Program-made: the position numbers and the translations under genes | Source of the DNA: a bacterium | GTDB taxonomy: Bacteria > Patescibacteriota > Patescibacteriia > UBA1558 > S5-K13 | Direction of reading: 5' to 3' | Length of the DNA: 64,000 nucleotides | NCBI GenBank assembly: GCA_029555085.1 | Contig: JAKPTO010000026.1 | Coordinates: 37,217 to 101,216, forward strand | Shown: positions 9,556 through 59,570 of the stretch, in pieces | How the letters are laid out: each line of letters starts with the position of its first letter | How positions within the stretch are numbered: the stretch's first letter is position 1 | The notes under the pieces: generated by a model | Told to the model about the DNA's origin: nothing | The model's input: the letters and a program-made list of their open reading frames with translations, nothing else | The model's database searches: none

Positions 9556-9558
9556 TTT

Positions 9559-10182: not shown

Positions 10183-10192
10183 TTAGGCCCTA

Positions 10193-21521: not shown

Positions 21522-21912
21522 GGGGATGTATCAATTTGATGCATAAAAAATTTGTTCTTTGGCAAGTCAAGTTTTGCGAAACTTGTAAAAAACGCTAAAT
21601 CATAAATGTCAAATCATTTATAGAAAAAGTTAAAGTTGCATTTAGTAATCCAGCTTTCAACTTTTCAATTGCTTAATCTTTTTTAAAAATTAAGCCATCC
21701 TCTATCTTCATACTCGATGGGGATTTACGAGGGTGTTATATTTTCGAGTTATACTATGGTAATTTCCATGTGCCATAGTGAAAACTTATGGAATATATAA
21801 ATAATATTTTTCTTATTTATAGTTATTTATAGAATTTTAAAAATAAGATAAACTTGTAGATAAAGAATGAATTGTTAGGCAGACAGGGGTTCAAATCCCC
21901 TCATCTCCACCA
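21522..21912 (+). ncRNA. ssrA: tmRNA (ssrA)
   Basis: 5' GGGGATG pairs with 3' CATCTCC-A-CCA to form a tRNA-like acceptor stem. The 3' T-arm GGGGTTCAAATCCCC is canonical. Length about 391 nt, immediately downstream of smpB. Confidence 0.8.
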
Positions 21913-23195: not shown

Positions 23196-23272
23196 GGAGC
23201 GGTAGTTCAGTTGGTTAGAACGCCTGCCTGTCACGCAGGAGGTCGAGGGTTCGAGTCCCTTCCGTTCCGCCA
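23196..23272 (+). tRNA. tRNA-Asp (anticodon GTC), CCA encoded
   Basis: Manual fold: acceptor GGAGCGG/CCGTTCC with one G-U pair, D-arm TAGTTCAGTTGGTTAGAAC, anticodon loop cTGTCAc, T-arm GAGGGTTCGAGTCCCTT, discriminator G, then CCA. Confidence 0.8.
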
Positions 23273-33634: not shown

Positions 33635-36600
33635 TTATTTTTTATATAAAGTGGAAACAAATCTTTGCATTCTGTCATTCAATACATCTAAAGCAATTCT
33701 TGTACTTTCTGGTGCGTTTTTTGGTATGCTCTTTAATGTGAGTTCCCAAAATTTTATCTCAAAATTATTTAACTTACTACTACCTGTTCTTTCCAGCTTT
33801 ATATCGCTTAATAATTTAAATGCTTTATCGTGTACAATGTCTTTATTAGCACTCTCCGTAATTATTCTATATAATTCAGTACCTCGTTCTCGGCTATAAA
33901 AAAATGTTCCAACTGAACTAACATCTGATGTCTGTTTAATAATGGAACCATTTTCATCAAATACTTGTTTAAGTGTTCCGCTTCTTCCCGCCTCCTTAAA
34001 AGTAACGAGCTTTGTATAATCATCGAGCCATTTCTCTGTTATTGTTCCTGTATTTGTTTTTATAATTTCTATATTTGGCTCGGAAATCAATTCTTGAAAA
34101 TTATTCTCTGTAATTTGCTCTAAGCCGGGACTTTGTGGATCAAGATCTGCATAATATTCCCCATGGTCTTTTTGAATTTCCAACACCCGATTATTACCAA
34201 CATTCGTTTCAAATTTAACTGGAATATTGTCTTCAACATCTTTCAATGCCTCTTCCAACTCAGAAAATGTATTAACTCTTTTAACTCCTAGTATCTCTGT
34301 TTGATTTTGAGCTATAGGCACACGATCTAATATATCTTCGACAGGTGTCCGTCCTGATATACCTTTGGTAGGCACATGATCTGGCTCAATAGTCAAATTT
34401 TGAACTGAGGATACTTGGTCTGATATATCTTCTATATTTGACTCAGAAATCAATTCTTGAAAATTATTCTCTGTAATTTGCTCTAAACCAGGGAGATTAG
34501 GATTAAAGTCTGTGTAATATTCTCCATTGTCCTCTATAATCCGTACAACATTACCACCAATTTCTACATCAGCCGAAGCACCTGCCTCTTTAAACTGAAA
34601 TACTTCTTTCAAATCAGAAAAATCCCTAACCACTGGAACCTCTGATGTTTCTATAGGTACATTAGTCAATGTATCTGGGGTGACTTCTATACTTTCTGTA
34701 GGTACATGATCTAACATATCTTCAGTGGGTACATGATCTGGTTTAATAACTGGGATTTCTGTATTACCATTATTAAACTCATCTTGCAACCTCGCTATTT
34801 GAAAATTTAACTCCTCTCCAGTATTTTGCTGTTGTGAAAGTAATTCTCGAGTTGCATTTAGTTCCTCAGATATCTTCGCTTGTATATTGGATGGAATATT
34901 TGGATCATCTAGCATTTCTTCTAATCTGGTAATTGATAATTTTGACTTTATTATATCATCATTTAACTCAAAATATTTACTTTGTAGCTCTTCTATTTGC
35001 TCAGGATAATTTGACTTAACTATATCTTCTACGGGTAGCACTTCTCTTACATTTGTTGGTCTGACAATTTCTGAAACATTAGGACCATGTTTGGGCTTAA
35101 TGACGCCCATTACATTATCTACATAATGTTTGTAAAAACTTTCATAAGACTTGGGTTTGACAAAGGCAAAAACCTCGTTAGTTTCTGGATCAACGACAAC
35201 TCTTGCTCCCGGCGCAACAACATTTGCATCAAAATTTTTAAGAATCAATGGTTCGCCATTAGGTCCAGAAGTAACAAGTGTCATTTTTGAACCACGAGGC
35301 ATGCTTATACCCAAAGTTTCAGAAACACTAGAGCCCTTAGCTACTGGAACGCCTTGATCTGCCAACTCTTGAATACGTTGAGGGTTCAAACCCTTAATAT
35401 CTTGAAAATTAGATACATCTGATTTTTTTGGAGAAAAACTTTGTGATGCCTCATTTATATCATCCGCTCGACTTGTTGAGATAACCTGATCTTTTTTACC
35501 AAAAACAGAGTTCTTCAAATTCTCAAAAGACTTTCCTAATCTCTCCATTCTTGAAACTATATCAGCATAACTTACAAAATTATCTTTCATGTTTTCCAAT
35601 ACATTACCCTGAGTAAATGTTTTGGTAAAACATTGTACCATGTTATCCACACTTGCACCAGATGTTTGTATTCCTGATAAAGCTTGCGTTCCCATACCAA
35701 GAGCCATTAATAATTCCCCCCAAGCTCTCATCATGGTAGTTTTTTTATCAAAACCTTTTAATTTTCTAACATCACTATGTTTTTTTAATTTATCATTTTC
35801 TACATAAAAACTTGATTCATATCGTTTTCCAGATAATCCATAATATGTTTCTAAAAACATTGTTTTAAATGCATCTCCAAGATATTGATGTGCTTTCATT
35901 TTTTCGCCAACCTTATTCCAGGAATATTCCTTTTGATATTTCAATGCTGATTTATCTAATTTTCCACCAAATGCAAATATTCCATACATAGCACCTCGAA
36001 GTCCAGCCGCACCTATCCCGCCACCAAAAACCATAGCCGTATTAAGTGCATCTTTTACAAGTATACTTCCATTTACTGTTCCTTGTATATAATCTTGCAA
36101 AATATAATCTATTTTTTTTGACCTTTGTTTTCTTAAATCATTTTTTGATTCCAAATTCGTAAGTAGAACTTTGTTTAATCTATTTCTCATTGTCATCTGA
36201 TCATGATCAGAAATAATATACAATAACTTTTCTTTATCTGTTAATGAACCTTCGTTAAACTTTTTTTCTATTTCTTGTCTTTTTTCTTTTGGTAAATCAT
36301 AATAATTCTGAGATCTGGCATTCTTTATCATTTCATTATATTGCATTGCTTTTTCTTTTACATCATCTACAGAAATTTTTTCATTTTTTATAAAATTTTC
36401 TCTAATTTTATTATTCTCCATTGAAAGAGTTTTTATTTTACGCTCTAATTCTTCTCTTTCTGTTTCATCTTTTGTGTTTTTATATATCTCTACATATCTA
36501 GATATTGCAGCAACTCTTCTTTTGTAATTATCATCTTGGTAAAGCTTCTGAAATTTTTCCTTATTAGAAGAAATCAACTCTGCTAAATCGCTTGTTTTCT

Positions 36601-38758
36601 TTTCTGCCTCAACCCTATCTTTCTTTGTTTCACTTTTTTGATCAAAATATTTATACACATCTGTTCTCTTGCCAAGAGCAAAATTAATTTTTCCTCCACT
36701 TATTTTATCAAGTCCATGCGCAAGTCCAGCGCCAATCCAATCACCAATGGCTTTAACACCAAACATTGAACCGATAATATTATATATTCCCTTACCTGTT
36801 GCTGCGCATAAGGCCCTCTTTTCTTCTTTTTCTTCTGGTGTTTTTGGTTTCTTAAAAATCAAATCAAAAGTTTTCTTAACCCTATCCTTAAATTTAACTT
36901 TTATCTGTTCTTCTTTTAACTCTTCATTGATAATATGTTCTTCCGGCGTATTAGATTGAATTTCTTTTTCTGATTCAAAATTATTGTAAGTAGATGTCCA
37001 TTTTATTTCTTGTCCCCATTCTGGACTGGTATGGGTAGATGTCCATTTTGCTTCCTGTCTCTCTCCTTGACTCGTATTAGTTTCCCATTGTTGTTCTTGA
37101 TTAGTATTAGATATTGTCTCTGGTTTTATTTCTTTTATTCCAAGTACATTGCTTATATATGTATTTGTATTTTCAAGAAGACTTGGTGCTATTTTTGTCA
37201 CAAAATTTACAATAAAAGACTCATTACCCTCCCTACCCTCATCTTCTACTCTATCCTTAGCTTCTAAAAATTTTCTTACCTCAATAATCTGATTATCGCT
37301 TAGTCTACTCAACTTGTACTTTAAAATATCAACTCCGGTATTTTCTAATTCTAAATGTTTATTAAAAAATTTTTCCTCTGTTTTCGGCAAATCGTCTTCA
37401 AAGACTTGTTTTTCTTTAATAACCTCCTCTTCTGATTTTTCAAAATTCTCTGATTTTGAAGTCTCTTCTTTTTCTGATTTAATCTTTTCTTCTGAATTTC
37501 CTAACAACTCTTTAACTTTATCTCTTAAACCGTATGCTCTAGTAACGAAATTAATATGATAGCTTTCGTGTCTCACTTGATCAATTATCTGCTTCAATTC
37601 CTCTGGACTATATTTTTCTTTGGTACCATCTATTGTCCCAATTTCTTCTATGGCAGAAAATAATTCCTCAAAATTTTTAGCATTGCTAATTTTTGCTTTT
37701 TGATTTTCTAGTAACTCTACAACCTTATCTCTTAAACCGTATGTTCTAGTAACATAAGTATTGCGAAGATCTCCATTCCTTACTTGGTTAATGATCTGCT
37801 TCAATTCCTCTGGACTATATTTTTCTTTGGTACCATCTATTGTCCCAATTTCTTCTATGGCAGAAAATAATTCCTCAAAATTTTTAGCATTGCTAATTTT
37901 TGCTTTCCTATCTTCTTCTGTTTCTATTGTATTTTTTTTATTTTTCCCCTCAATTTCTTTTTTAGATTCACTTTCTCTCATCATTTCAATGAGTTTTTTT
38001 GCATGCATTTTAGCCCATTGAATTTGTCCTTCATTATTTTCATAATCTAAACCTGCTTCTGGGTTAGGATGATTATCTTTTTCCCTATTTTCTATATCAT
38101 GTTGTTTCCAACTCATAAGAATTTTATACGCAATAGCTGTTTCTAAATCATTTGTAGTATCTCTATACATGTCATAATGTTTGTAATAATCATTAAAAAT
38201 GCCTTTATAATCTATACCCGTTTCCATATCTGGATTTTCAAAAAAATTCTTATACACTTTTTCAACTTCAGATTCCATATATTTATAATCTTCTGGATTG
38301 TCTGGTAATTCTGTTTTTATAACTCTCTCTGGAACCTGATCTAAAACATTGAGATCTTTTTCTGATTCAAATTTTTCATCTATTTTTTCTTGTCCATCTT
38401 CGGGGATTTCTTTCGCATACTCGTCTGATGCTGATATAATTTCTTTTGCCCTTTTTATTCTCTTATTAATCTCAGGGACTAATTTTCTTAAATCTTCTAA
38501 ATAATTAAAAAAAAGAGAACGATCTTCATCAAATGTTTCTTGGTCACTCGATATAAGTATATATTGATCTGCACTAAATGATATATCCGACCTAATTTCT
38601 TCGAGTAATTCTTCACCCCTATTTAATATTTTCTCTAAAGCTTGTTTCTTAAATCTTATGAATCCATCTGGGTTATTATTATCTATAAATTCTCTGTATT
38701 GCTCATTCTTATCAACTAAATTTTTTAAATTCTCTGTAGGTTGTTTTATTTTATCCAT
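33635..38758 (-). CDS. Giant repeat-containing protein (1707 aa): coiled-coil N-terminal region, Gly-rich amphipathic/hydrophobic central segments, repeat-rich C-terminus. Function unknown.
   Basis: No signal peptide. A roughly 70-aa module (KAKISNAKNFEELFSAIEEIGTIDGTKEKYSPEELKQII.QVR) is duplicated. Gly-zipper-like segments GIGAAGLRGAMYGIFAFGG. C-terminal repeats PGLEQITENNFQELISE.NIE appear twice. Confidence 0.5.
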   Translation of the reverse strand: MDKIKQPTENLKNLVDKNEQYREFIDNNNPDGFIRFKKQALEKILNRGEELLEEIRSDISFSADQYILISSDQETFDEDRSLFFNYLEDLRKLVPEINKRIKRAKEIISASDEYAKEIPEDGQEKIDEKFESEKDLNVLDQVPERVIKTELPDNPEDYKYMESEVEKVYKNFFENPDMETGIDYKGIFNDYYKHYDMYRDTTNDLETAIAYKILMSWKQHDIENREKDNHPNPEAGLDYENNEGQIQWAKMHAKKLIEMMRESESKKEIEGKNKKNTIETEEDRKAKISNAKNFEELFSAIEEIGTIDGTKEKYSPEELKQIINQVRNGDLRNTYVTRTYGLRDKVVELLENQKAKISNAKNFEELFSAIEEIGTIDGTKEKYSPEELKQIIDQVRHESYHINFVTRAYGLRDKVKELLGNSEEKIKSEKEETSKSENFEKSEEEVIKEKQVFEDDLPKTEEKFFNKHLELENTGVDILKYKLSRLSDNQIIEVRKFLEAKDRVEDEGREGNESFIVNFVTKIAPSLLENTNTYISNVLGIKEIKPETISNTNQEQQWETNTSQGERQEAKWTSTHTSPEWGQEIKWTSTYNNFESEKEIQSNTPEEHIINEELKEEQIKVKFKDRVKKTFDLIFKKPKTPEEKEEKRALCAATGKGIYNIIGSMFGVKAIGDWIGAGLAHGLDKISGGKINFALGKRTDVYKYFDQKSETKKDRVEAEKKTSDLAELISSNKEKFQKLYQDDNYKRRVAAISRYVEIYKNTKDETEREELERKIKTLSMENNKIRENFIKNEKISVDDVKEKAMQYNEMIKNARSQNYYDLPKEKRQEIEKKFNEGSLTDKEKLLYIISDHDQMTMRNRLNKVLLTNLESKNDLRKQRSKKIDYILQDYIQGTVNGSILVKDALNTAMVFGGGIGAAGLRGAMYGIFAFGGKLDKSALKYQKEYSWNKVGEKMKAHQYLGDAFKTMFLETYYGLSGKRYESSFYVENDKLKKHSDVRKLKGFDKKTTMMRAWGELLMALGMGTQALSGIQTSGASVDNMVQCFTKTFTQGNVLENMKDNFVSYADIVSRMERLGKSFENLKNSVFGKKDQVISTSRADDINEASQSFSPKKSDVSNFQDIKGLNPQRIQELADQGVPVAKGSSVSETLGISMPRGSKMTLVTSGPNGEPLILKNFDANVVAPGARVVVDPETNEVFAFVKPKSYESFYKHYVDNVMGVIKPKHGPNVSEIVRPTNVREVLPVEDIVKSNYPEQIEELQSKYFELNDDIIKSKLSITRLEEMLDDPNIPSNIQAKISEELNATRELLSQQQNTGEELNFQIARLQDEFNNGNTEIPVIKPDHVPTEDMLDHVPTESIEVTPDTLTNVPIETSEVPVVRDFSDLKEVFQFKEAGASADVEIGGNVVRIIEDNGEYYTDFNPNLPGLEQITENNFQELISESNIEDISDQVSSVQNLTIEPDHVPTKGISGRTPVEDILDRVPIAQNQTEILGVKRVNTFSELEEALKDVEDNIPVKFETNVGNNRVLEIQKDHGEYYADLDPQSPGLEQITENNFQELISEPNIEIIKTNTGTITEKWLDDYTKLVTFKEAGRSGTLKQVFDENGSIIKQTSDVSSVGTFFYSRERGTELYRIITESANKDIVHDKAFKLLSDIKLERTGSSKLNNFEIKFWELTLKSIPKNAPESTRIALDVLNDRMQRFVSTLYKK
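37520..37950. repeat. Intragenic tandem duplication, unit about 213 bp x 2, with a stretch of about 130 bp that is 100% identical
   Basis: The sequence ttatctgcttcaattcctctggactatatttttctttggtaccatctattgtcccaatttcttctatggcagaaaataattcctcaaaatttttagcattgctaatttttgcttt occurs at about 37578 and again at about 37790. Confidence 0.75.
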
Positions 38759-48614: not shown

Positions 48615-49269
48615 AATGTAAACAATAATTTTTAATTTTACAAATATTACATTTTGGACCAATTGGCCTACAAATATTTTGACCAAACAATACTAATACA
48701 AAATTTATTTTTTTCCAGTACAACTTATCTAAATTTTTTCTTAAAAACATTTCGGTTTCATACGGAGTCCTTGTGTTTAAATATCCAATTCTATTTAATA
48801 TTCTATGAACATGCGTATCCACACAAATTGCTGGTTTTTTTAAAACTGTAGAAATATATAAATTTGCTGTTTTTCTCCCAATTCCTGGAAGTTTTATAAG
48901 TTCATCGATAGTTTCCGGAATTTTAGAATTGAAATCCTTATTTAAAACAAAACATAATTTTTTTAAATTTTTTGCTTTTGTTTTATAAAAACCAACTGGA
49001 TAAATCAATTTTTGTATTTGTAGATTTGTTAATTTTTGCAAATCTTTACAGTTGCTTACTTTTTCAAATAATCTTAATGATGACTCAAGAGTTGTTTTGT
49101 CTTTTGTTCGTGACGATAAAATTATTGAAATTAAAATCTGAAAATTGTTAAATTTTTTAGAATACAAAAAATCAACAGCAGGAAGTTCAAATTCACTAAC
49201 CTGCTGTGACAATAAATCAAGTATTTTTTCTATTTTTACTTTGATTTCCATAATCCATGAAGATTGCAA
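48559..49269 (-). CDS. nth: Endonuclease III
   Basis: HhH-GPD region (LPGIGRKTANLY...VDTHVHRI) and C-terminal 4Fe-4S cluster C-x6-C-x2-C-x5-C (CRPIGPKCNICKIKNYC). Confidence 0.8.
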   Translation of the reverse strand: MQSSWIMEIKVKIEKILDLLSQQVSEFELPAVDFLYSKKFNNFQILISIILSSRTKDKTTLESSLRLFEKVSNCKDLQKLTNLQIQKLIYPVGFYKTKAKNLKKLCFVLNKDFNSKIPETIDELIKLPGIGRKTANLYISTVLKKPAICVDTHVHRILNRIGYLNTRTPYETEMFLRKNLDKLYWKKINFVLVLFGQNICRPIGPKCNICKIKNYCLHYEKINKQNSRNKKIKNQK

Positions 49270-49637
49270 TATGCTCTAACCGTAACAATATTTGCTTTAG
49301 CGTAGAAGTCTGCTTCTGGTTTATCTCCTGGATTTAAAAATTTCTTCCCAGACTTTCCATCATCAGTATTAATTTCAATCCACTCTATAAAATGAGATTC
49401 TTCCATTGGATGTTCAGTTGATCCAACCTTAACTTTGTAACCAAATTCTGTTTTTTCTATAATTGGAACATGTTTTTCATTACCCTGATCTTGTGATTTT
49501 TCTCCTTCTAATCTCATAGCCGTCCCACAACAAACAAGTGATTCTGCTCCAATGTTTAAAACCTCAATAACATTGCCACAAATATCACATTTATAAATCT
49601 GTTTTTTCTTTGTCATAATATTTAAATTAATAATCAA
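49236..49637 (-). CDS. dfx: Desulfoferrodoxin / superoxide reductase (2Fe-SOR)
   Basis: N-terminal desulforedoxin motif CDICGN...CCG and C-terminal neelaredoxin-like EKHVP...HPMEESHFIEWIE. The probable true start is the internal MTKKKQ (49616). Confidence 0.8.
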   Translation of the reverse strand: MIINLNIMTKKKQIYKCDICGNVIEVLNIGAESLVCCGTAMRLEGEKSQDQGNEKHVPIIEKTEFGYKVKVGSTEHPMEESHFIEWIEINTDDGKSGKKFLNPGDKPEADFYAKANIVTVRAYCNLHGLWKSK

Positions 49638-49692
49638 TTATAAAATTTTAAATACTAAGTAACCAAAATGGAAATTTGATTATTAGTTGTTG

Positions 49693-50262
49693 TTACTTGG
49701 ACATTGTTTCAAAATATGCTTTTGGGTGTTTACATGCTGGACATTCTTCTGGGGCATTTTCTGATTCATGAACATAACCACAATTTCTACAAACCCAATA
49801 AACTTTTTCTGATCTTACAAAAGTAGTATTGTTTTCTAAATGTTCTAAAAATTTCTTATACTTTTCTTCATGATGTCGTTCTGCCTCGGCAATACTCCTA
49901 AGTCTAATTGCAATATCTTTTAAACCCTCGCGTTCTGCTATATCAGCAAATTCTGGATACATTGATGTATGTTCATAATTTTCTCCAGCAATTGCTGCTT
50001 TTAAATTCGCAATTGTATCACCTAAAACAGTAGGACATTCTGAATCAACTTTTATAGCTTCTCCACTATTTTGAGTTAATTCGTTTATAAGTTTCATTAG
50101 AACTTTTGCATGTTCTTTTTCTTGATCTGCTGTTAGTGTAAAGTTAGCTGAAATCTCTTCAAATCCCTCTTTTTTAGCAACAGAAGCATAATAAGTATAT
50201 CTATTTCTAGCTTGTGATTCACCTATAAAAGCTTTTGCTAAATTTTTAATTGTTTCTTGCAT
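49693..50262 (-). CDS. rbr: Rubrerythrin
   Basis: Diiron four-helix region (ExxH motifs: EKEHAKV, ERHHEEKY) and C-terminal rubredoxin-like CxxC...CxxC (CRNCGY...CPACKHP). Confidence 0.8.
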   Translation of the reverse strand: MQETIKNLAKAFIGESQARNRYTYYASVAKKEGFEEISANFTLTADQEKEHAKVLMKLINELTQNSGEAIKVDSECPTVLGDTIANLKAAIAGENYEHTSMYPEFADIAEREGLKDIAIRLRSIAEAERHHEEKYKKFLEHLENNTTFVRSEKVYWVCRNCGYVHESENAPEECPACKHPKAYFETMSK

Positions 50263-50339
50263 AATTTTTTAATTAATTATTAATATTTTAAGTATATCAA
50301 ATTCAAACAGCATTATAAAGCGTTGTTAATAGCGTATAA

Positions 50340-51554
50340 TTATTGATAATATTTATTTCTATTATAGTTAAATTCAAAAGATTTATTAAAATCAGATACT
50401 AATGATGGAATATTTGAAACCATAATTGACTCATCGTTTCTAAAAAATCCCCCAGAACTCCAATTATTTGTTCCAAAAAGAGCTATTTTATCATCAAAAA
50501 TCATTAGATGATGGTGTAAAAAAGAATTTAAATTTTGTTCATTAAATATTTGTTTTAATTCTTTATTTCTATTTTCATCAGTCAAAATTTCTAAATTATC
50601 TAAATGATTTTGCTTTTTCTTTTTTATCATAAAATTAAATACGGAACCATCTACTGAAAAATTATAATCATCTGTTAAAATTTTTACACTAATCTTTTTT
50701 GATGCTAATAATAAATCTTCTGCAATATCTCTATCTGTCATAAGCCAAATCATGGATTTTATGTTGTCCTTTGAATTCTCAATCAGATTCAACATTCTAT
50801 CCTTGATACCAGTATTTATTCTTTGTGGAGTAAACCAAATTTCTAAAAATCCTTCTGGATATTTTATAAGAGCAGCGAATGGATTATATTCTTTTGATAA
50901 TTTATCTCTTCCGCGTAAACCAGAAAATATTCTATCAAATTCCTCTCCATATATTTCAATAATTTCTGGCCTGTCAGTTTCTAAAATAAAACTCGGATCA
51001 TATTTATCTTGAATATAAGTAAAATTATAAGAACTAAAGAGTAATTTCTGGGTCTCCTCGCCTCTATCAATTATTATAAATTTATGATGCATGTATTCTG
51101 ATTTTTGAGTATTAATGTTCCTAGACAAAATATCTTTTCTTGTAATATTATCTCGCTTTTCTGAAAACAATCTATTATTTATATCTCTATGCACATCACT
51201 AAAAACTAATTTTATATTCACTCCTCTGTCTGATGCTTTATAAATTGCATCTCTTATCCTTTCGTCGTTCATAGAATAAATAGCCACTTCAATGGTTTTT
51301 TGTGCAGAATTTATAGAATCAATAACAATTTTTGACAAAATGTTTTGTCCAAATTCATCATTAAAATGTAAACTCCCTGAAAATGGTTCTGTGATTTCTA
51401 TGATTTTCGCAGGCCTAAATTCTACTATTCTTCTCTTCGAAAAAGATGTAAAAAATAAGTATATAAAAATTCCCATTGTAATTAATAAAAGAATTGGAAT
51501 TGCCCAAAAAATAAATGTCTTATGTGATTTTTCTAATTTCATCACCCAGCTCAT
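50340..51554 (-). CDS. Membrane-anchored phospholipase D superfamily protein (cardiolipin-synthase-like), two HKD-type motifs
   Basis: N-terminal TM helix. Motif 1 is HHKFIIIDRGEE...SSYN (HxKxxxxD...GSxN-like). Motif 2 is HHHLMIFDDKIALFGTNN, which is Cls-like but has His where the Lys is expected. Confidence 0.6.
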   Translation of the reverse strand: MSWVMKLEKSHKTFIFWAIPILLLITMGIFIYLFFTSFSKRRIVEFRPAKIIEITEPFSGSLHFNDEFGQNILSKIVIDSINSAQKTIEVAIYSMNDERIRDAIYKASDRGVNIKLVFSDVHRDINNRLFSEKRDNITRKDILSRNINTQKSEYMHHKFIIIDRGEETQKLLFSSYNFTYIQDKYDPSFILETDRPEIIEIYGEEFDRIFSGLRGRDKLSKEYNPFAALIKYPEGFLEIWFTPQRINTGIKDRMLNLIENSKDNIKSMIWLMTDRDIAEDLLLASKKISVKILTDDYNFSVDGSVFNFMIKKKKQNHLDNLEILTDENRNKELKQIFNEQNLNSFLHHHLMIFDDKIALFGTNNWSSGGFFRNDESIMVSNIPSLVSDFNKSFEFNYNRNKYYQ

Positions 51555-53235
51555 ATTTTTGCTGATAAGTTAAATAATTATTATTTTCTTTTGAAAATAC
51601 TATAATAATAGAATCTTCAAGTTTTTCACTTAATATTTCTATTATTTTTATAATATCATTATAATTCAAATCAATCCAAATATTGTCAATAATAATAAGT
51701 TGTTTTTTATTAACTATGCAATGGAGCGCTTGAAGAGCAAAGCATGAAACATTATTATTAAAAGCCAACACACAAGAAGAATTAACATTATTTATAGAAG
51801 ATATTTTTGATGCAATAAATTGATTTTCAGATATTACCTTGATCACATTTTCAATTTCAGAAGAATTAATTTGTTCTTTATCTTTCCCTAAAATAAACTC
51901 CATCAAACTTTTTTCTGAAAATATTTTAGGATCGAAAAAATATGCGCCACAGAATAATTTTTGCCATATTGGATAATCATATCTTTTATTGTCTATTTTC
52001 ACCTTCATTGCCTTGGGATTATAAATACGCATTCCTGCAAAAATTTTAGCCAAACTTGTTTTTCCTGAAAAATTCTCTCCAAAAAATAAAATTCTTTCTG
52101 ATTTTTTAAAATGAAAATCTAGATTTCTGAAATATTTACCATCTTTAAATAATTTTGTTTTTTTTGCGTGAAACAATATTTCATTATGAATTTTTAAAGT
52201 ATTTTTTCTACGCAAAACTGCTCCTTTTTGCAATACTGTTAAAAACAAACCCAATCTTGCTGGAAAAAAATATAAACCAACTCTTAGCGCTTGATTAAGT
52301 GTTCTTGGAAAATAGAACATTAAAAATAAAAATAAAAATCTATTATCTCTACCAAGTAAATTTATAAAAGAAAAAAACTCATTTGTAAAAAAATTGCTTA
52401 AAATTACAATTATCAAAACTATCACAAATACAATTTTTGCGCTTATTCCAATCCAAAGATTTCTTCTAATGCGAAAAAAAGAATCTATATTAACAAGACG
52501 ATCAAACTTTTGTAGCACACTATCTTCATTATTAAAATTTTTATTAAAATATTTTTCTGATAAGCTAATATCGATATGTTTTATTATTTGTGAATAAAAA
52601 GTGACTTCTTGCGAAATATATTTTTTTGCAACATAATAAGCTATTATTCCTATAAGAATAGAAAGTGCCACGAAAAAAACGAAAACAATAAATAAATTTA
52701 ATCCTATTAAATATGCAATGAGCATTGCCACAGAAAAATATATGAACCATCTAATTATTCCAAAAAAAACAATTGATACACCCATTGAAACAAGCGATAA
52801 TTGATAAGAAATTTTTGCTATTAACCTACCCTGCCTTTCGTTGTTCATTGTTTCAACGGGTCTATCAATAAATGATTTAAATATTCTGCGCCTAATATCA
52901 TTTGCAAATAATACCACAATAGTTTTTTCTTGTTTTATAGAAAAAAATGAACTTATGATAAACAACAATATAAAAATAGCAAAAAATTGCCAAAAAAATG
53001 GGTCTAAAATACTATTTAGCTGAGATAATTTATTTCTACTAAATACAATAAGAAACGCTTCTATTACACAGGAAACAAAAATTAAAAGAACAAGACGCAA
53101 AATATAAAATTTATATTTTTTAAAAAAATCTCGTAAATACCCGTAATGTAAAAACGATAATTTTATATCTTTGTATTTATTCCTTGTTTTTCTAATTTCT
53201 TTTATTAATCTAATTTGTTCTTTTATTTCTTTCAT
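51520..53235 (-). CDS. ABC-exporter-like protein (6-TM domain plus degenerate nucleotide-binding domain)
   Basis: TMD followed by Walker A GENFSGKTS. No recognisable LSGGQ signature. Walker B is LIIIDN (Asp-Asn, not Asp-Glu). The H-loop His is not evident. Overlaps the RT gene by 26 nt and the PLD-like gene by 35 nt. Confidence 0.55.
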   Translation of the reverse strand: MKEIKEQIRLIKEIRKTRNKYKDIKLSFLHYGYLRDFFKKYKFYILRLVLLIFVSCVIEAFLIVFSRNKLSQLNSILDPFFWQFFAIFILLFIISSFFSIKQEKTIVVLFANDIRRRIFKSFIDRPVETMNNERQGRLIAKISYQLSLVSMGVSIVFFGIIRWFIYFSVAMLIAYLIGLNLFIVFVFFVALSILIGIIAYYVAKKYISQEVTFYSQIIKHIDISLSEKYFNKNFNNEDSVLQKFDRLVNIDSFFRIRRNLWIGISAKIVFVIVLIIVILSNFFTNEFFSFINLLGRDNRFLFLFLMFYFPRTLNQALRVGLYFFPARLGLFLTVLQKGAVLRRKNTLKIHNEILFHAKKTKLFKDGKYFRNLDFHFKKSERILFFGENFSGKTSLAKIFAGMRIYNPKAMKVKIDNKRYDYPIWQKLFCGAYFFDPKIFSEKSLMEFILGKDKEQINSSEIENVIKVISENQFIASKISSINNVNSSCVLAFNNNVSCFALQALHCIVNKKQLIIIDNIWIDLNYNDIIKIIEILSEKLEDSIIIVFSKENNNYLTYQQKYELGDEIRKIT

Positions 53236-54427
53236 AATGAAAGTCTAAATAAAAATTATATAATGATTTTATTTTTAAATATTCTATCTCTTTTCTTAAC
53301 AACCTTCTGTTGCGTGGTGAATATTTACCAAATATAAAATCTGTTAAAATACGGAAAAAATCTTCTGATAATTTTTTTATTTGTTCTGAGTTATTGATTT
53401 GTGGTTTATCTTTTATAATTTTTTGAAATTGGTAGTTAAAATTTTTTTCTGGATGTCCCATAATCCTTCTCAGTAAATACTTTTTTTTACTTAAATTATA
53501 ATTTTTATATTTTAAAATACTTTTCCAACCAGCAATAATACGCTTAATATATGATTTTTCTAAACTAATAATTCCTGAATTAAAGCAGTAGCCTAAAAAA
53601 GAAAAATTTTCTTTTGCATCACCAATAAATAATTTGCTATTATTTATTGTTAAATTTCTAATATTCAAATCTTTGATAATTTCTAATTTTAATTTATTTA
53701 GCTTGTCTATGTTATTATCAAAAATACCTATATCATCTCCTATTCTTATATAAAATGAACATTGTTTTTGATATTTATGATCAAGGTCTGTTAAATATAA
53801 ATTATTAAAAAGTGCTATTAGTGGAACACCCTGGACAAGACCTATATCAGGTGCTTCTATCTTACCATTTTTATATATTTTATTAAAAATAAATAATTTT
53901 AATAAATCTAATATTTTTCTATCTTCAAAAATGTTTTCCAGTTGTGAGTATAAAACATTCTTATCAATCAAGTCAGAATAGTTTTCCAAATCTAACACTA
54001 ATGCTTTGTCTGTAGAAAAATTTTTCCTATATCTATGGCAAAAATTTTTTGCTGCAAAATATGGTGGCTTGCCCGGCCTATATGAAAACAATCTTTTTGA
54101 AAAAACTTTTTCAAATTCTGGTAATAAAACTCTATAAATTGCCTGTGCTTTTATACGATCTTTTATATTATAAATAAAAATATCCCTGAATTTCTCGGGA
54201 TTATTTTTTTTAGGAATTGAAACAATAAGTGCTGGCTCAATTTCCCTATTTTCAACTAATTCTTTTTGACAAATATCTATAAGCTCCTTTGAATTTAAAT
54301 CTCTGTCTTGTATTGAAATATTATCCAAACCGTGATATCTAAAACTTTTACTATCTATAGAAAATTTTTCCACTATATCTAAATAAGCAGATCGAATATT
54401 ATCATAAGATACAATTTTATTAAACAT
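53210..54427 (-). CDS. Free-standing reverse transcriptase (group-II-intron-like / unclassified bacterial RT) with atypical 'IGDD' catalytic motif
   Basis: Motif 1 SIPKKNNPEKFRDIF. Motif 2 RIKAQAIYRVLLPEF. Motif A LVLDLENYSDLID. Motif B GLVQGVPLIALFNNLYLTDLD. Motif C FYIRIGDDIGIF. Motif 7 FSFLGYCF. Thumb/X-like IIAGWKSILKYKNY. Confidence 0.7.
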   Translation of the reverse strand: MFNKIVSYDNIRSAYLDIVEKFSIDSKSFRYHGLDNISIQDRDLNSKELIDICQKELVENREIEPALIVSIPKKNNPEKFRDIFIYNIKDRIKAQAIYRVLLPEFEKVFSKRLFSYRPGKPPYFAAKNFCHRYRKNFSTDKALVLDLENYSDLIDKNVLYSQLENIFEDRKILDLLKLFIFNKIYKNGKIEAPDIGLVQGVPLIALFNNLYLTDLDHKYQKQCSFYIRIGDDIGIFDNNIDKLNKLKLEIIKDLNIRNLTINNSKLFIGDAKENFSFLGYCFNSGIISLEKSYIKRIIAGWKSILKYKNYNLSKKKYLLRRIMGHPEKNFNYQFQKIIKDKPQINNSEQIKKLSEDFFRILTDFIFGKYSPRNRRLLRKEIEYLKIKSLYNFYLDFHYERNKRTN

Positions 54428-54694
54428 ATTTTTAAAAATCGTCCTCAGGATATATAATAAAAATACTATATATTAATAAATCTAATGAAGACCCCCGTCC
54501 ACAAACTGGTTACAACCGTTTCCATTTTAATTAATTCGATATTAACGAATATAAAAAATTAAAACTAAAACGATTATTAATATCTCCTAAAATAGGAGTT
54601 TTGAGGATGATTTTTAAAAGTACATAATATATTATAGCATGTCAATAAAGCGTATGTAAAGAATAAATATATAATTTTGTGATATAATTAATCT

Positions 54695-56758
54695 ATGAAT
54701 CTAGATACAACACTTGATAAAATCTACGGAATAGGTCCAACAATCTATAAAAAATTACAAAAAATCGGATTAAATACAATATCTGATGCTATTTTTTATT
54801 ATCCATTTAGATATGAAGATTTTTCCCATTTAAAACAAATAAATGAGCTTGTAAATGAAGAATCTGCCACTATAAAAGGAAAAATCATACTTTTAAACAA
54901 TAAGAGATCTCCTAGAAAAAAAATGAATATCACTGAAATGCTTTTAGGAGATGATTCCGGACAAATTCAGATAATTTGGTTTAATCAACCATATATTAAA
55001 AATATATTACAAATTGGAGATGAGATATTTGTTTCAGGTGTTGTAAAAAAATCACTTTTGGGATTATCACTTATAAATCCAAATTATGAAAAAACTAATA
55101 GAGACACATCACACACTGCAAGAATTATTCCTATATATCCATCAACAGAGCATTTATCACAGAAACAACTTAGATACATAATAAAACAATCCTTGTCTTG
55201 TATAAATGAATTACATGAAAGGTTACCAAGTCAAATTATTAAAAAAGAAAATTTAATAGAAATAAAAGAGGCAATAAAACAAATTCACTTTCCAGATAAT
55301 TATAAAAAATTAGATCTTGCAAAAAAAAGATTATCATTTGATGAAATATTTTTATTATCATGTTTATCAAAATTTATTAAAAAACAAAATATTGAATTAA
55401 GCGCTCCTCAAATTAATTTCAAGGAAAAACAGATAAAAGATTTAGTAAAAAAAATTCCATTTAAATTAACAGAAGATCAAAGAAAGGCAACCTGGCAAAT
55501 TCTAAAAGATATTAGCCACAAAATTCCAATGAATAGACTTCTTGAAGGCGATGTAGGAAGTGGAAAGACAATTGTTTCTTTTATCTGCGCTTACAATGTA
55601 ATCTTGAACAAATATCAAGCAATTTTAATGTCTCCTACTCAGATTTTAACAAAACAACACTTTGAAAATGCTGTAAAATTTTTCAAGGACTATGATATTA
55701 ATATTTTACTTTTTACAAACTCTGACAGATTATTATTTAATGGAAAAAAACAATTAGCACAAAAATTAACAAAAAAAGAAATTAATAAGTTTGTCAAAAA
55801 ATCTGATTTTATAATAGGAACTCATTCTTTAATTCAGCAAAATGTAGAATTCAAAAATATTGGGCTCATAATAATTGACGAGCAACACAGATTCGGAGTT
55901 AAGCAGCGTCAAGAATTAACAAAAAAATCAGATATTAGTCCACACTTTTTATCAATGACTGCAACTCCAATTCCAAGATCTCTAGCGCTTACAATTTATG
56001 GAGATTTAGATATTTCAAAAATTTTACAAAAACCAGCAAACAGAAAAAAAATTATTACAAAATTTGTATATTCTCGCAACAGAACAAAAGCTTATGAATT
56101 TATTTATAACCAGATCCAAAACGGCAGACAAGTTTTTGTTGTGTGTCCACTTATAAATGAATCGGATAAATTAGGAGTAAAATCCGTAATGAGTGAATAT
56201 GAAAAATTAAGCAACGACATTTTTCCAAATTTAAAAATAGAATATTTACATGGAAAAATGAAAGAAACAGAAAAGCAAAAAATTCTAAAAAGTTTTTCTG
56301 ACAATGAAACAAAAATTTTAGTATCAACTTCTGTTATTGAGGTTGGAATTGATTTTCCAAATGTAACAATAATGATAATTGAAGGTGCTGATAGATTTGG
56401 ATTGGCATCACTCCATCAATTTCGAGGTCGTGTTGGTCGCGGAGAACATCAATCATTTTGCTTTTTATTTTCTGAATCAAACTCAGAAAAATCCCGTAAA
56501 CGTTTAGAAATATTAACAAAAACAGATAATGGATTTGAACTCGCAGAATATGATTTAAAATTTCGTGGAAGTGGAGATTTGTATGGAATAAAACAATCAG
56601 GATTTATGAATGGAGTGAAAATTGCAGATTTATCAGATTTAGAATTAATCAAAAAATGCAATATTTGGGCTCAATATATTTTTGAAAAAGGTCTTGAAAA
56701 ATTCCCTCAAATAAAAAAAGAGATAGAATTACTATCTTCTGATATTCACTTGGAATAA
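54695..56758 (+). CDS. recG: ATP-dependent DNA helicase RecG
   Basis: N-terminal wedge/OB domain. Helicase motif I GDVGSGKT, motif II IIDEQHRFG, motif VI QFRGRVGRG, and a TRG region. Length 687 aa. Confidence 0.85.
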   Translation: MNLDTTLDKIYGIGPTIYKKLQKIGLNTISDAIFYYPFRYEDFSHLKQINELVNEESATIKGKIILLNNKRSPRKKMNITEMLLGDDSGQIQIIWFNQPYIKNILQIGDEIFVSGVVKKSLLGLSLINPNYEKTNRDTSHTARIIPIYPSTEHLSQKQLRYIIKQSLSCINELHERLPSQIIKKENLIEIKEAIKQIHFPDNYKKLDLAKKRLSFDEIFLLSCLSKFIKKQNIELSAPQINFKEKQIKDLVKKIPFKLTEDQRKATWQILKDISHKIPMNRLLEGDVGSGKTIVSFICAYNVILNKYQAILMSPTQILTKQHFENAVKFFKDYDINILLFTNSDRLLFNGKKQLAQKLTKKEINKFVKKSDFIIGTHSLIQQNVEFKNIGLIIIDEQHRFGVKQRQELTKKSDISPHFLSMTATPIPRSLALTIYGDLDISKILQKPANRKKIITKFVYSRNRTKAYEFIYNQIQNGRQVFVVCPLINESDKLGVKSVMSEYEKLSNDIFPNLKIEYLHGKMKETEKQKILKSFSDNETKILVSTSVIEVGIDFPNVTIMIIEGADRFGLASLHQFRGRVGRGEHQSFCFLFSESNSEKSRKRLEILTKTDNGFELAEYDLKFRGSGDLYGIKQSGFMNGVKIADLSDLELIKKCNIWAQYIFEKGLEKFPQIKKEIELLSSDIHLE

Positions 56759-56793: not shown

Positions 56794-58131
56794 TTAAATT
56801 AAAAACTTTTTAAGTTCTTTTATATTTTTGATACAATTCAAATTAATTCCTTTTACATCAACTGCTTTTTCAAAACTTGGAATAATTATATTTTTAAATC
56901 CTAAATTCACTGCTTCTTTTATTCTCTCTTTTGTTTTTGGTATTTGTCTAATTTCTCCATTGAGTCCTACTTCACCAAAAAATACTGAATTTTCCATAAT
57001 TTTTTTATTTTCATATGATGAATAAATTGCCACCGCAACCGCTAAATCAAGCGCGCGGTCCGAAACTTTGAAGCCACCAGTTAAATTAATATAAACATCA
57101 TATAAATTTAATTTTAAATCTAATTTTGATTGAAGTACTGCTATAAGTAATTCTAATCTTTTCTGATCATAACCAGATACGGTTCTTTTTGGATAACCAA
57201 AATTTGTTTTTGATACAAGTGCTTGAAGTTCTAACATTAAAACCTGATTTCCTTCTATAATAGAAGTAATTGCCGTGCCTGAACTTTCTGGATTAATTGA
57301 TGACAAATAAATTTTTGATGGATTTATCACTTCTTTAAATCCTGATTTTGTCATCTCTAAAATTACCGACTCATCAGTTGCTCCAAATCTATTTTTAACA
57401 GATTTCAAAATTCTAAATCTATGCAATCTATCACCTTCAAGACTCAGTACGCAATCAACTAAATGTTCCATTGTTTTAGGTCCCGCTAAATCACCTGATT
57501 TATTTACATGACTTATGATGAGAGTTGCAATATTAAATTTTCTTGCAATTTCCATAATTTTTACAGTACAAGCCCTTACTTGCGCGACTCCACCTGGATC
57601 GCTTTCAATCTCACTCGTGTAAAGTGTTTGAATTGAATCTATAATTAAAAAATCTGGTTTGATTTTTAATATTCCAGCTAGAATTATTTCTATATTATTT
57701 TCTGCCAAAAACTTTACTACTTTACTATCAACTTCCAATCTATCAAAACGAGATTTTACTGAACTTGCACTCTCTTCTCCTGAAACATATAAAGTATTTA
57801 AACTCTTGTTTATAATTTGAGAAATAATTGTAGATTTTCCAATCCCCGGCTCACCACCAAGTAAAACCAAAGAAGAAGGAACTAATCCTCCTCCGACTAC
57901 TTTATCAAAATAAGTTAATCCTGTTTTTATTTTTTTAACTTGTTCATTTTTTATTTTTGACAAATCTATGAAATCAACTTTTAAATCTTTTAAATTTTCT
58001 GTTTTGTCTTTTCTTTCGTCTTCGATAAATGTTTCTTTTTCTAATGTTCCCCAAGCACCACACTCAATACACTTTCCAGCCCATTTCGGAAATTGTGCTC
58101 CACATTTTGAACATGAATATATTGTTTTCAT
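56794..58131 (-). CDS. radA: DNA repair protein RadA/Sms
   Basis: N-terminal C4 zinc finger (CSKCGAQFPKWAGKCIECGAWGT), Walker A GGEPGIGKST, KNRFG motif, and a Lon-like C-terminal domain. Confidence 0.9.
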   Translation of the reverse strand: MKTIYSCSKCGAQFPKWAGKCIECGAWGTLEKETFIEDERKDKTENLKDLKVDFIDLSKIKNEQVKKIKTGLTYFDKVVGGGLVPSSLVLLGGEPGIGKSTIISQIINKSLNTLYVSGEESASSVKSRFDRLEVDSKVVKFLAENNIEIILAGILKIKPDFLIIDSIQTLYTSEIESDPGGVAQVRACTVKIMEIARKFNIATLIISHVNKSGDLAGPKTMEHLVDCVLSLEGDRLHRFRILKSVKNRFGATDESVILEMTKSGFKEVINPSKIYLSSINPESSGTAITSIIEGNQVLMLELQALVSKTNFGYPKRTVSGYDQKRLELLIAVLQSKLDLKLNLYDVYINLTGGFKVSDRALDLAVAVAIYSSYENKKIMENSVFFGEVGLNGEIRQIPKTKERIKEAVNLGFKNIIIPSFEKAVDVKGINLNCIKNIKELKKFLI

Positions 58132-58157: not shown

Positions 58158-59570
58158 TTATCTACCGATTCCCTTTCTTGCTATATTCTCAAATCCTAAT
58201 TCTTTGCATTTATTATAACGAGCTAATTTTAAATTACCAGTAGAAATAGCCCACTGACTCGTTGTGCCTCCAGCATATCTTCTAAAACAAAGTTCCAAGT
58301 TACCATCTTTACAATACTGATGTTTCCATCCTAAAACAAAAGCTTCTAAATTAGAATCAATAGTTAATAATGAATCAAAACTAAAACACTTATTTTGATA
58401 TATAAAACCATTATTATTATTACATAAAATATCTTGTTTAGAATGGTAAGTAATTTGACCCAAACCCAATCCAAATGTATAACCTTTTTTATTTATATAG
58501 TTTTTCCAATTAGAAATAGAGACCCCTGGAATATTTTTATCATAAACATACTTAGAGCAATTAGGATTATTACACAACTCTCTTTTATTGCTATTAATTT
58601 TTCCTGCCAACCAATCCTTGCAACAAGAAGGATAAAGATTACATATATGTGCCCTGCGAGCAATAATATCACAAGCCGTGTCTCTAGTAACAGCCGAGTC
58701 ATTGCCAAATGCTCTTGGGTCTCCTCCTGATTCTTGATGAATTACAGCATAATAAATACACTCATCTATATTGTTCCACTTAGCAGACTTTTGAATACCA
58801 ACAATTACTTCCTCAGAAAAAATATGACTATCACCAACAGATTTTATATTAGACCCAGATCCAATATAAGAACCACTACTAGCTAATTCATATCTATCAA
58901 CTTCAATAGGTATAATCTTCTCCACCTTTATTGGTACTATATTCAACAAGGCTGGATTTATTGTTTGGAGTATCAAAACAGAAGAAACGCATAAAACAAA
59001 CCCTATTAAAGCATTTTGTAGTCTTGATTTAGCTTCCCCTATTTTACTCTGATTTCCTCCTGCTAATACCCACTGAAAACCAGCCAATATTATTGCTAAA
59101 ACAGCCACGATTCCTGATAAATATATTAAATATCTAAAAAGTACTACTAAAAAATCTCCAATCAAAGCACCGCTTACCTCTACTTCACTTCTAAAACCTG
59201 GTATTCCGACTTCTGGAGTAAATGATATAGATTTTGGTTCCCCAGGAGTTTCATCTACGCCTTCATTTGAATTATTTTGACAATCAGAAGCCCATTGTTT
59301 AATAGCCTCCTGTTTATAGTGATTACGAAATTCAATATCATGCACAACTTCAGCTGGAAATCCAGCTGCCGTATTCTGCAACTCCCTATCCATCCAAGTC
59401 GTATACAAACCCTGATAATCAACGCTAGATTTATTTAAATCAGTGGCCGGACAATAACTCGGCCTTAAGTATTTTAAATTGGGATCATCCGGTAACTGTG
59501 CCTCTACGCCTCTAAAAAAAAACAGAAACGCTACACTAAAAATAAATAAATATCTCCTTATCTTATTCAT
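58158..59570 (-). CDS. Secreted/membrane protein: TrbC/VirB2-like pilin-type hydrophobic hairpin fused to a lytic transglycosylase (SLT/VirB1-like) domain
   Basis: Signal peptide. Two long hydrophobic helices (ALIGDFLVVLFRYLIYLSGIVAVLAIILAGFQWVLAGG and ALIGFVLCVSSVLILQTINP). SLT motifs VIHQESGGDPRAFG (catalytic Glu-Ser) and GLGLGQIT. Cys-rich. Confidence 0.5.
   Translation of the reverse strand: MNKIRRYLFIFSVAFLFFFRGVEAQLPDDPNLKYLRPSYCPATDLNKSSVDYQGLYTTWMDRELQNTAAGFPAEVVHDIEFRNHYKQEAIKQWASDCQNNSNEGVDETPGEPKSISFTPEVGIPGFRSEVEVSGALIGDFLVVLFRYLIYLSGIVAVLAIILAGFQWVLAGGNQSKIGEAKSRLQNALIGFVLCVSSVLILQTINPALLNIVPIKVEKIIPIEVDRYELASSGSYIGSGSNIKSVGDSHIFSEEVIVGIQKSAKWNNIDECIYYAVIHQESGGDPRAFGNDSAVTRDTACDIIARRAHICNLYPSCCKDWLAGKINSNKRELCNNPNCSKYVYDKNIPGVSISNWKNYINKKGYTFGLGLGQITYHSKQDILCNNNNGFIYQNKCFSFDSLLTIDSNLEAFVLGWKHQYCKDGNLELCFRRYAGGTTSQWAISTGNLKLARYNKCKELGFENIARKGIGR

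Follow-up and report, generated by a model that had tools for sequence, protein, structure and literature searches.

Bacterial reverse transcriptases (RTs) with dedicated RNAs (retrons, DRT2/9/10 and diversity-generating retroelements, DGRs) have each opened a new route of nucleic-acid synthesis. Retrons consist of a promoter, a noncoding RNA (ncRNA) closed by terminal inverted repeats, an RT and then effector genes, and the class 2 UG/DRT systems (DRT2, DRT9, DRT10/UG17, UG26) have an RT of about 400-500 amino acids and an upstream ncRNA that templates unusual products. [quoted passage not shown] Here, we describe an RT locus from a Patescibacteriota genome (lineage UBA1558; S5-K13) that can be compared with all of these. 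It lies in a 64,000-nucleotide stretch of DNA (assembly GCA_029555085.1, contig JAKPTO010000026.1, positions 37,217 to 101,216), hereafter the window, which is A+T-rich (28.7% G+C). The motif C of this RT reads IGDD. We show that it belongs to a separate RT family, whose sugar pocket has been remodelled and which is linked to a class of pseudoknotted RNA and to an invariant pair of an ATP-binding cassette (ABC)-like protein and a predicted nuclease. IGDD thus marks an undescribed four-part system of the kind that combines a domesticated RT with an ncRNA and effectors.

The RT is most similar to the RTs of group II introns. Its open reading frame (ORF) includes QCSFYIRIGDDIGIFDNN in translation, with motif C read as F-Y-I-R-I-G-D-D, and the motifs RT0-7 are colinear with group II intron RTs, which give the top match in both sequence and fold; the fingers and palm with N-terminal extension and the thumb (X) are present too. 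The Pfam domain RVT_1 covers residues 71-280 (3e-13); a Pfam maturase domain was not detected in a sequence search of the protein. The group II intron RT/maturase model TIGR04416 scored 124.9 bits over profile positions 18-273, below its cutoff of 300. The AlphaFold model (pLDDT 92.7) best matched the GsI-IIC RT (PDB 6AR1; Foldseek TM score 0.81) over its full length, with about 436 aligned columns that include the thumb and C-terminal domain; DRT9 ranked second, followed by G2L4 (TM score 0.72) and a DGR RT. Searched against PDB sequences, the family profile matched the GsI-IIC RT (2.8e-33), the Eubacterium rectale maturase (5e-31) and Cas6-RT-Cas1 (1e-27), and further LtrA, DRT9, DRT2, G2L4 (4.7e-10, residues 195-308) and the Ec86 RT (2e-7).

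We found 186 homologs of the RT in a search of 5.8 billion proteins, and those with a named source come from Patescibacteria, Falkowbacteria or Magasanikbacteria. Residue counts below refer to the query and the 120 listed homologs (121 sequences in all), which are only 30-70% identical. The border of the family was drawn at E<1e-60 in an HMMER scan, run without filters, of 1.84 billion representatives at 50% identity. About 60 family representatives lie within it, some 40 of them full length, followed by an abrupt drop to generic RTs. Being nearest to group II intron RTs and without intron RNA, the protein is a G2L enzyme in the broad sense; it is not a G2L4, which has YIDD and F149/F150 where this RT has [VI]GDD and Y-S. 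We conclude that it represents a lineage of group II intron-like RTs, so far uncharacterised, that are domesticated and lack an intron. Three proteins of about 830-860 amino acids (P0160, P0162 and P0170) score just under the family border and contain two RT-like stretches, each with R-Y-[A/C/G]-DD; these may be tandem-RT fusions.

Loss of the motif C tyrosine defines this family. The family profile (efYiR-v-G-DD) aligns without gaps to the GsI-IIC RT (LKFCR-Y-A-DD) and the E. rectale maturase (FVR-Y-A-DD), and thus Ile or Val stands in place of Tyr, and Gly in place of Ala. An earlier note on this DNA had read the catalytic motif as IGDD, with Ile and Gly at the aromatic and alanine positions, and the alignment bears out both departures from YADD. 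The note's peptide (R-I-G-D-D-I-G-I-F) was also right, but its placement at 53735-53749 was off by about 15 nucleotides (nt) and left the minus strand unstated: on that strand the peptide spans 53720 to 53746, and I227-R228-I229-G230-D231-D232-I233-G234 spans 53726 to 53749. Position 229 is Val in 109 sequences, Ile in 10 and Leu in two, while R228, G230, D231 and D232 are each invariant (121/121). The consensus motif C is R-V-G-DD, with the window RT in an Ile sub-branch. Full-length family members in the HMMER scan all read R-[VIMLC]-G-DD, except for one VCDD, whereas proteins below the border read R-Y-[A/S/C/G]-DD, including a few borderline cases of R-Y-G-DD. The note had asked whether homologs keep the motif or revert to YADD; we looked for YADD within the family and found none. 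With [VI]GDD inside the family and R-Y-x-DD outside it, the loss of Tyr is a defining derived character of one family. IGDD is not an assembly error, because it is conserved across many independent assemblies. A sequencing error or a misaligned motif is, for practical purposes, ruled out by conservation in over 180 independent homologs and by the profile alignment.

The active site has changed well beyond motif C. In structurally characterized RTs, the sugar of the incoming deoxynucleoside triphosphate (dNTP) is packed against by F143 of GsI-IIC (F150 of G2L4, and a Tyr of HIV-1 RT), and the Tyr of Y(I/A)DD hydrogen-bonds a base (G5) in the bound DNA substrate; the X of YXDD stacks on the sugar pucker, and F110 of RT2a projects beside X (10.1101/2025.01.14.632616). 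We find that these sites differ in the family. Motif A (D146-L-x-N-Y150-S151-D) aligns without gaps to D138-L-E-K-F142-F143-D of GsI-IIC and to its E. rectale counterpart, which places Ser at the F143 site in 108 of 121 sequences (Thr in four, Ala in three); relatives outside the family have [YF]-F here. Tyr of motif C has become Val or Ile, X is Gly (121/121) and F110 is Tyr116 (121/121). Both of the aromatics that contact the sugar and the primer end in other RTs are replaced. The residues K73, R81, R117, D146, D231, D232, K265 and the LGY motif are kept in 120-121 of the 121 sequences, and Q199 of motif B in 101. Since catalytic and triphosphate-binding residues are invariant, the pocket has been remodelled rather than decayed, under selection as a polymerase. 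Y116 may compensate for the lost aromatics. A motif C change coupled with a compensating change elsewhere in the pocket is also found in G2L4.

A structured RNA is encoded directly upstream of the RT. The 267-nt upstream spacer holds this RNA and a promoter-like site, which is the top-scoring site in 50200..54800 and predicts a transcript start near 54624, just ahead of the RNA; TGnTATAAT-like boxes occur at the matching place in loci L001, L003, L009 and L012. The minimum free energy of the RNA region is -53.9 kcal/mol (z -6.4 versus shuffles). Across 60 related loci, the closing stem is long and varies in sequence from locus to locus with complementarity kept. We aligned 14 close loci with MAFFT, derived a structure with RNAalifold (42 pairs, 28 with compensatory changes) and built from it a covariance model, R1. 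At E<8e-4, R1 found 41 copies, all on the RT strand and upstream of an RT: 37 lie directly upstream, three are the more upstream of two tandem copies and one (L002) is 2 kb away. Pairing is kept in 93.9% of cells, compared with 71% in shuffled and about 39% in slid alignments, and double changes occur at 46 of 48 pairs.

The pseudoknot provides further covariation. It was spotted by eye, is absent from R1 and was then scored on the alignment of R1 hits. The strand after P2 (GAUAUUAR) pairs with the P4 loop (cgUUAAUAUcg) in 98.2% of cases, and all six pairs covary, with variants AUAUUA/UAAUAU, AUGCCG/CGGCAU, GCAUUA/UAAUGC, GUGUUA/UAACAC and AUAUCA/UGAUAU. Two unpaired stretches are also conserved: AAaAC past P1 and cnUCnnUngAuuUaA ahead of P6. 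An E-value scan of the upstream region found no Rfam 15 family for this RNA. A new structured RNA class, absent from Rfam and with strong covariation, is thus very well supported by comparative sequence analysis. When JGI metagenomes were scanned for patterns of the two pseudoknot strands, 38 loci were returned. Six were confirmed by R1, all six (6/6) are directly followed by an RT, and the ABC and phospholipase D (PLD)-family genes also follow where the contig is long enough; the other 32 are chance matches with neither an R1 match nor an RT.

The arrangement of the RNA suggests more than one role. Loci L008 (7522-7704), L013 (7623-7807) and L027 (7606-7779) have a second tandem RNA copy that differs mostly in P5, and in L002 about 2 kb of type IV pilin-like genes separate the single copy (5808-5983) from the RT. 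Both features point to a trans-acting partner rather than a mere leader. The 3' arm of P1 abuts the AUG, which makes a regulatory role also likely. Two of the nearest outgroup RTs with R-Y-G-DD (P0163, P0185; L100:813-4134, L103:297-1807) have upstream regions of 170-230 nt closed by long stems, which were recognised by folding and by eye only; R1 did not score on these G+C-rich upstream RNAs. The pairing of RNA and RT seems older than the loss of Tyr. P0163 is convergent with, and overlaps, a gene for a canonical ABC exporter (LLDE, H-loop) and lacks a PLD gene. A 12-mer search for RNA targets in the window, in both senses, gave only A+T-rich chance matches. A direct repeat of 32 nt (81% similar) links the RT coding sequence (53881-53912, LDLLKLFIFNK) with J5/6-P6 of the RNA (54455-54486), and is probably also A+T-rich chance.

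The two partner proteins are invariant companions of the RT. The first, of 571 amino acids, has a basic N-terminal tail, six transmembrane (TM) helices and a degenerate nucleotide-binding domain. It weakly matches ABC_membrane (2.7e-7) and ABC_tran (1.7e-5), and its model (pLDDT 81.8) resembles PglK (Foldseek TM score 0.73), followed by MsbA, PCAT1 and TM287/288 (about 0.7). It shares the fold and Walker A of type IV ABC exporters such as MsbA and PglK; unlike them, it lacks the catalytic Glu (Walker B reads D-N in 54/61), the LSGGQ signature and the H-loop His. With Glu replaced by Asn and neither signature motif nor H-loop, it has an ABC fold but is not a canonical ATPase. All 69 of its homologs (E<1e-67) share a contig with an RT homolog, and none occurs apart from the RT.

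The second partner is predicted to be a tandem nuclease of the PLD family. PLDc_2 matches the 404-amino-acid protein twice (3.8e-31), NCBIfam NucT matches each half (3e-16), and a PDB search returned NucT, Zucchini and Nuc. No match to cardiolipin synthase was found; the nuclease models match instead. The first HKD motif is intact (H156-x-K158-x4-D163) and the second reads H347-x-H349-x4-D354; each of the 57 homologs that extend over this part has HxH(x)4D...GTNN. The protein thus has the fold and HKD motif of the PLD-superfamily nucleases NucT of Helicobacter pylori and Nuc of Salmonella, and differs from both in being a fused tandem with HxH in its second motif and an N-terminal anchor. From these matches, its substrate is probably nucleic acid rather than lipid. 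Lys plus Arg average 5.2 on the N side and 2.1 on the C side of its single N-terminal TM helix (59 homologs), and these flanking charges predict an N-in topology with the catalytic part outside the cell. NucT is an envelope nuclease tied to DNA uptake and purine salvage.

The module is almost confined to Patescibacteria and is constant in order. We compared the neighbours of the window RT with 60 related loci by tblastn (61 with the window). The order RT-ABC-PLD was found in every locus long enough to show it, in 60 genome loci and four metagenome loci. The genes lie on one strand, usually with overlapping reading frames; a Peregrinibacteria locus (L060) alone is divergent. The entire RNA-RT-ABC-PLD module also occurs at about 7760-12340 of a 2.96-Mb Longimicrobiales contig (L051, CBDFMQ010000002.1), in a G+C-rich Gemmatimonadota genome, where the RNA is closed by a stem of 27 bp and its pseudoknot (UUGUCG/CGACAA) covaries. 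This suggests transfer beyond Patescibacteria. Four genomes contain two diverged copies of the module (L006 and L028, L012 and L040, L034 and L045, L036 and L052). The flanks differ between clades, are conserved within clades and are of housekeeping type, including an rRNA operon, ftsH, nusB, rnc, pilT, a ComEC-like metallo-beta-lactamase protein and type IV pilin-like genes. A phage-borne element was rejected: the single, doubtful match in IMG/VR (2.9 million viral contigs) has the chromosomal neighbours of other loci. PADLOC holds no system that joins an RT to ABC and PLD partners. In the accessible part of the literature, we found no account of RTs with VGDD/IGDD, of an RT system in Patescibacteria or of a module that joins RT, ABC and PLD genes.

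Among described systems, none shares all of these features. Group II intron RTs have YADD, F143 and F110 where this family has [VI]GDD, Ser and Tyr, and they lack its fixed ABC and PLD genes; the RNA structure at the RT start codon recalls their DIVa autoregulation site. A mobile group II intron was rejected, as no ribozyme was found (only a tmRNA and a tRNA in the whole window at the Rfam gathering threshold, and nothing in the upstream E-value scan). Furthermore, the RT stop lies inside the ABC gene, so that intron domains V and VI would have no space. G2L4 keeps the Tyr and the sugar-packing Phe, has an RT3a plug and is without a cognate RNA or membrane partners. The layout is retron-like, and a closing stem, comparable with the a1/a2 repeats of retrons, is present and covaries. 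However, the nucleotides after its 5' arm (AAaAC) include no branching G, and the RNA is pseudoknotted; some retron effectors are ATPase and nuclease pairs or TM proteins, of families unlike those here. A retron-type RT was also rejected on its PADLOC scores (RT_IX 8.2e-6 and RT_II-A 2.6e-5, versus 6.8e-39 for the top model, the generic PDLC01136, labelled only 'RT').

The class 2 UG/DRT systems resemble the locus in RT size and upstream ncRNA, and DRT10 also pairs with a membrane protein (SLATT). PADLOC models of UG26 (2.1e-31) and UG17 (4.3e-25) rank among the better PADLOC matches of the RT and are weaker than group II-type models, and the PADLOC model of UG38, a UG group from CPR bacteria, does not match it. 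These systems differ in their defence-island context, which is not seen here, and in their partners and RNA. CRISPR-associated RTs form a related group II-derived branch (PADLOC Cas1_IIIb 2e-29) that keeps [YF]-A-DD; there is no array near the RT and there are no cas genes among its neighbours. A DGR was rejected as well, since no direct repeat of at least 45 nt and no template/variable repeat pair lie near the RT, and the DGR RT is a mid-rank fold match. Viral RNA-dependent RNA polymerases (RdRps) share the [VI]-G-D-D tetrapeptide and a small residue at the steric gate. This is convergence at most: only GDD is RdRp-like, and motifs A and B and the fold are of RT type.

Coordinates of the features in the window. 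Positions are those of the 64,000-nucleotide stretch.
Feature	Position	Strand	Remarks
RT gene	53210..54427	-	405 aa, free-standing, group II intron-like fold
Motif C, I229-G230-D231-D232 in place of Y-A-D-D	53732..53743	-	Profile alignment, conservation
Motif A, D146-L-E-N-Y150-S151	53975..53992	-	S151 at the sugar-packing (steric gate) site, F143 of GsI-IIC
Y116, at the position of GsI-IIC F110	54080..54082	-	Profile alignment; Tyr in 121/121
Structured ncRNA, about 190 nt	54429..54617	-	Covariance model R1, 120 bits, E 9e-22
RNA P1 closing stem	54602-54615 with 54434-54447	-	
RNA J1/2	between P1 and P2	-	AAAAC
RNA P2 hairpin	54584-54598	-	
RNA pseudoknot	54578-54583 with 54539-54544	-	AUAUUA with P4 loop UAAUAU
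RNA P3	54557-54574 with 54515-54532	-	
RNA P4 hairpin	54535-54549	-	
RNA P5	54487-54514	-	Variable, G+C-rich
RNA J5/6	54474-54486	-	Conserved single strand
RNA P6 hairpin	54450-54473	-	
Promoter-like site, TTTACA-18 nt-TGnTATAAT (extended -10)	54631..54660	-	Consensus match only, 11/12
ABC half-transporter-like protein	51520..53235	-	571 aa; start overlaps RT stop by 26 nt
Tandem PLD-family (NucT/Nuc-like) nuclease, predicted	50340..51554	-	404 aa; start overlaps ABC stop by 35 nt
recG	54695..56758	+	Divergent from the RT operon
radA	56794..58131	-	Adjoins recG
T4SS-pilin-domain protein	58158-59570	-	Upstream of the module, beside radA; adjacency with radA and recG recurs only in L050
tmRNA	21522-21912	+	Rfam
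tRNA-Asp	23196-23272	+	Rfam

Several neighbouring genes recur beside the module. Downstream of the PLD gene, the window encodes desulfoferrodoxin and rubrerythrin (49236-50262, minus strand), syntenic in L001, and L008 and L011 have rubrerythrin, too, a few kb downstream; the pair suggests oxidative-stress protection in an anaerobe. In 13 divergent-clade loci (L034-L050, L058), a protein of about 204 amino acids with one TM helix (cluster c3; e.g., L034:5753-6367) adjoins the PLD gene. In 12 loci it follows that gene directly, and in L046 it stands immediately upstream of the RT; genes for cupredoxin-like and large surface proteins often come next. Elsewhere in the window, a 1707-amino-acid ORF (33635-38758, minus strand) with internal repeats of 207 and 117 nt looks like a giant repetitive surface-type protein, as is typical of episymbiotic bacteria.

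We favour, at a probability of roughly 0.55, a reading in which a domesticated group II-like RT acts as a polymerase that is guided by RNA, has an altered selectivity for the sugar and is coupled to partners at the membrane. The Ser at the steric gate, the dedicated RNA and the invariant ABC and PLD partners are more telling here than IGDD alone. The RT would bind the RNA as a ribonucleoprotein, part of the RNA serving as template, primer or both, and would make a short stretch of nucleic acid, its choice of sugar being relaxed or altered and tolerant of ribonucleotides. In keeping with such a pocket, MLV RT F155V and HIV-1 RT Y115 mutants incorporate rNTPs, and telomerase naturally has Leu or Val where other RTs have the Tyr. 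With P1 over the ribosome-binding region, the RNA or ribonucleoprotein could also hold down translation of the RT, in the manner of group II intron RTs at DIVa. The ABC-like protein, with its cytoplasmic ATP-binding domain and basic N-terminal tail, may read out the ribonucleoprotein or its product at the membrane, and would be coupled to the nuclease on the outer face. As for purpose, a retron/DRT-style immune or abortive module comes close to an even bet. Such defence-like logic fits best, because an RT and an ncRNA occur with an ATPase-like protein and a nuclease, in duplicated and diverged copies. An accessory for nucleic-acid uptake or scavenging, a need of the Patescibacteria lifestyle, is clearly less probable and still has to be taken seriously: the enzyme is NucT-like, the neighbours include pilin, PilT, a ComEC-like protein and RadA, and Patescibacteria are auxotrophic. 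The remaining probability falls to purposes other than these.

Several observations weigh against the RNA-guided polymerase reading. The module is embedded in housekeeping genes (rRNA operon, ftsH, nusB, rnc, recG, radA), is conserved within clades and has one match in 2.9 million viral contigs, which is unlike typical defence islands. It is difficult to see how a nuclease predicted outside the cell would connect with a cytoplasmic RT in abortive infection. 'Transport' is doubtful, as the degenerate ATP-binding domain, even as a homodimer, could not hydrolyse ATP. A P1 stem that abuts the AUG fits a purely cis-regulatory RNA too. Finally, Y150 or Y116 might refill the gate pocket, leaving sugar selectivity normal.

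A stronger version of the sugar-pocket argument holds that the RT has become an RNA-templated RNA polymerase, or one that mixes rNMPs and dNMPs, its lost gate admitting the 2'-OH. Family-specific changes agree with this: G230 is invariant (121/121), the gate residue is Ser, Thr or Ala in 115 of 121 sequences, and the displaced Phe packs on the sugar in other RTs (10.1101/2025.01.14.632616). Precomputed Pfam RdRp matches on P0082 and P0171, driven by the [VI]GDD motif, point the same way. A single change can suffice, as F155V makes MLV RT an rNTP user. The xGDD motif is an RdRp signature, read as IGDD in alphavirus nsP4, and Patescibacteria may be short of dNTPs. Against it, motif B reads QG..P...N.YL and not SG...T...N, motif A reads D-x4-S-D and not D-x4-D, the fold is nearest to DNA-making group II RTs, and Y150 and Y116 might still exclude the 2'-OH. 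On balance, we consider this unlikely. Rather unlikely, too, is the proposal that a sugar-switched RT serves as an RNA-guided ribonucleotide (or mixed or modified) polymerase whose product passes to a non-hydrolysing ABC conduit and an extracellular nuclease.

Other explanations give the RNA or the polymerase a lesser part. The RNA could be only a cis-acting leader of the operon (riboswitch- or attenuator-like), with the RT working on other substrates. In favour of this, its P1 3' arm in most loci ends 1-10 nt ahead of the AUG and sequesters the ribosome-binding region, and no terminator separates RNA and RT. The tandem copies, which differ in P5, the L002 copy 2 kb from its RT behind pilin genes and the restriction of the RNA to loci with this RT make a mere leader distinctly improbable. 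To our knowledge, and as far as the accessible part of the literature goes, every other studied ncRNA-flanked bacterial RT uses its own RNA as template or scaffold, which also speaks against a leader. The earlier note had drawn on G2L4 to suggest a shift toward repair or non-templated activity. The analogy is a useful lead, in that G2L4 shows how motif C changes can retune a group II-like RT, and it is plausible that the motif C change has shifted RT function here. Yet G2L4 keeps Tyr (YIDD) and Phe F150, both lost in this family, and has no dedicated RNA, its match to the family is weak and partial, and the invariant partners here are membrane proteins. The divergent recG and adjoining radA would suit a repair polymerase tuned for end joining, but this adjacency occurs only in the window and L050 (2/61 loci), and neither repair nor non-templated activity finds specific support. 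We regard a G2L4-like repair polymerase as very unlikely. Lastly, the RT could be polymerase-dead, an RNA-binding or maturase-like scaffold in which IGDD reflects active-site decay. Loss of the YXDD Tyr is crippling in retroviral RTs, and the failure to detect a Pfam maturase domain has been counted on this side. Telomerase, however, works with a natural Leu or Val at this position, decay would not freeze exactly V-G, and sequences that are only 30-70% identical all keep the Asp of motif A and both Asp of motif C, the triphosphate-binding Lys and Arg, the Lys of motif D and the LGY of motif E. A dead enzyme is thus most improbable.

This RT family provides a natural experiment on how polymerases choose between DNA and RNA building blocks, and is a possible source of enzyme tools. 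No system described so far strictly pairs a cytoplasmic RT and its RNA with a crippled ABC exporter and a nuclease predicted to face outward, and the four parts are open to test. If the RT is indeed sugar-switched, it would be a cellular, RT-derived, RNA-templated RNA polymerase. Patescibacteria have very small genomes with few known defence systems, and must obtain nucleic-acid precursors from their hosts. The module is the first conserved RT-based one in these bacteria and, should the sugar switch prove true, they would possess a previously unknown pathway of nucleic-acid export, uptake or immunity.

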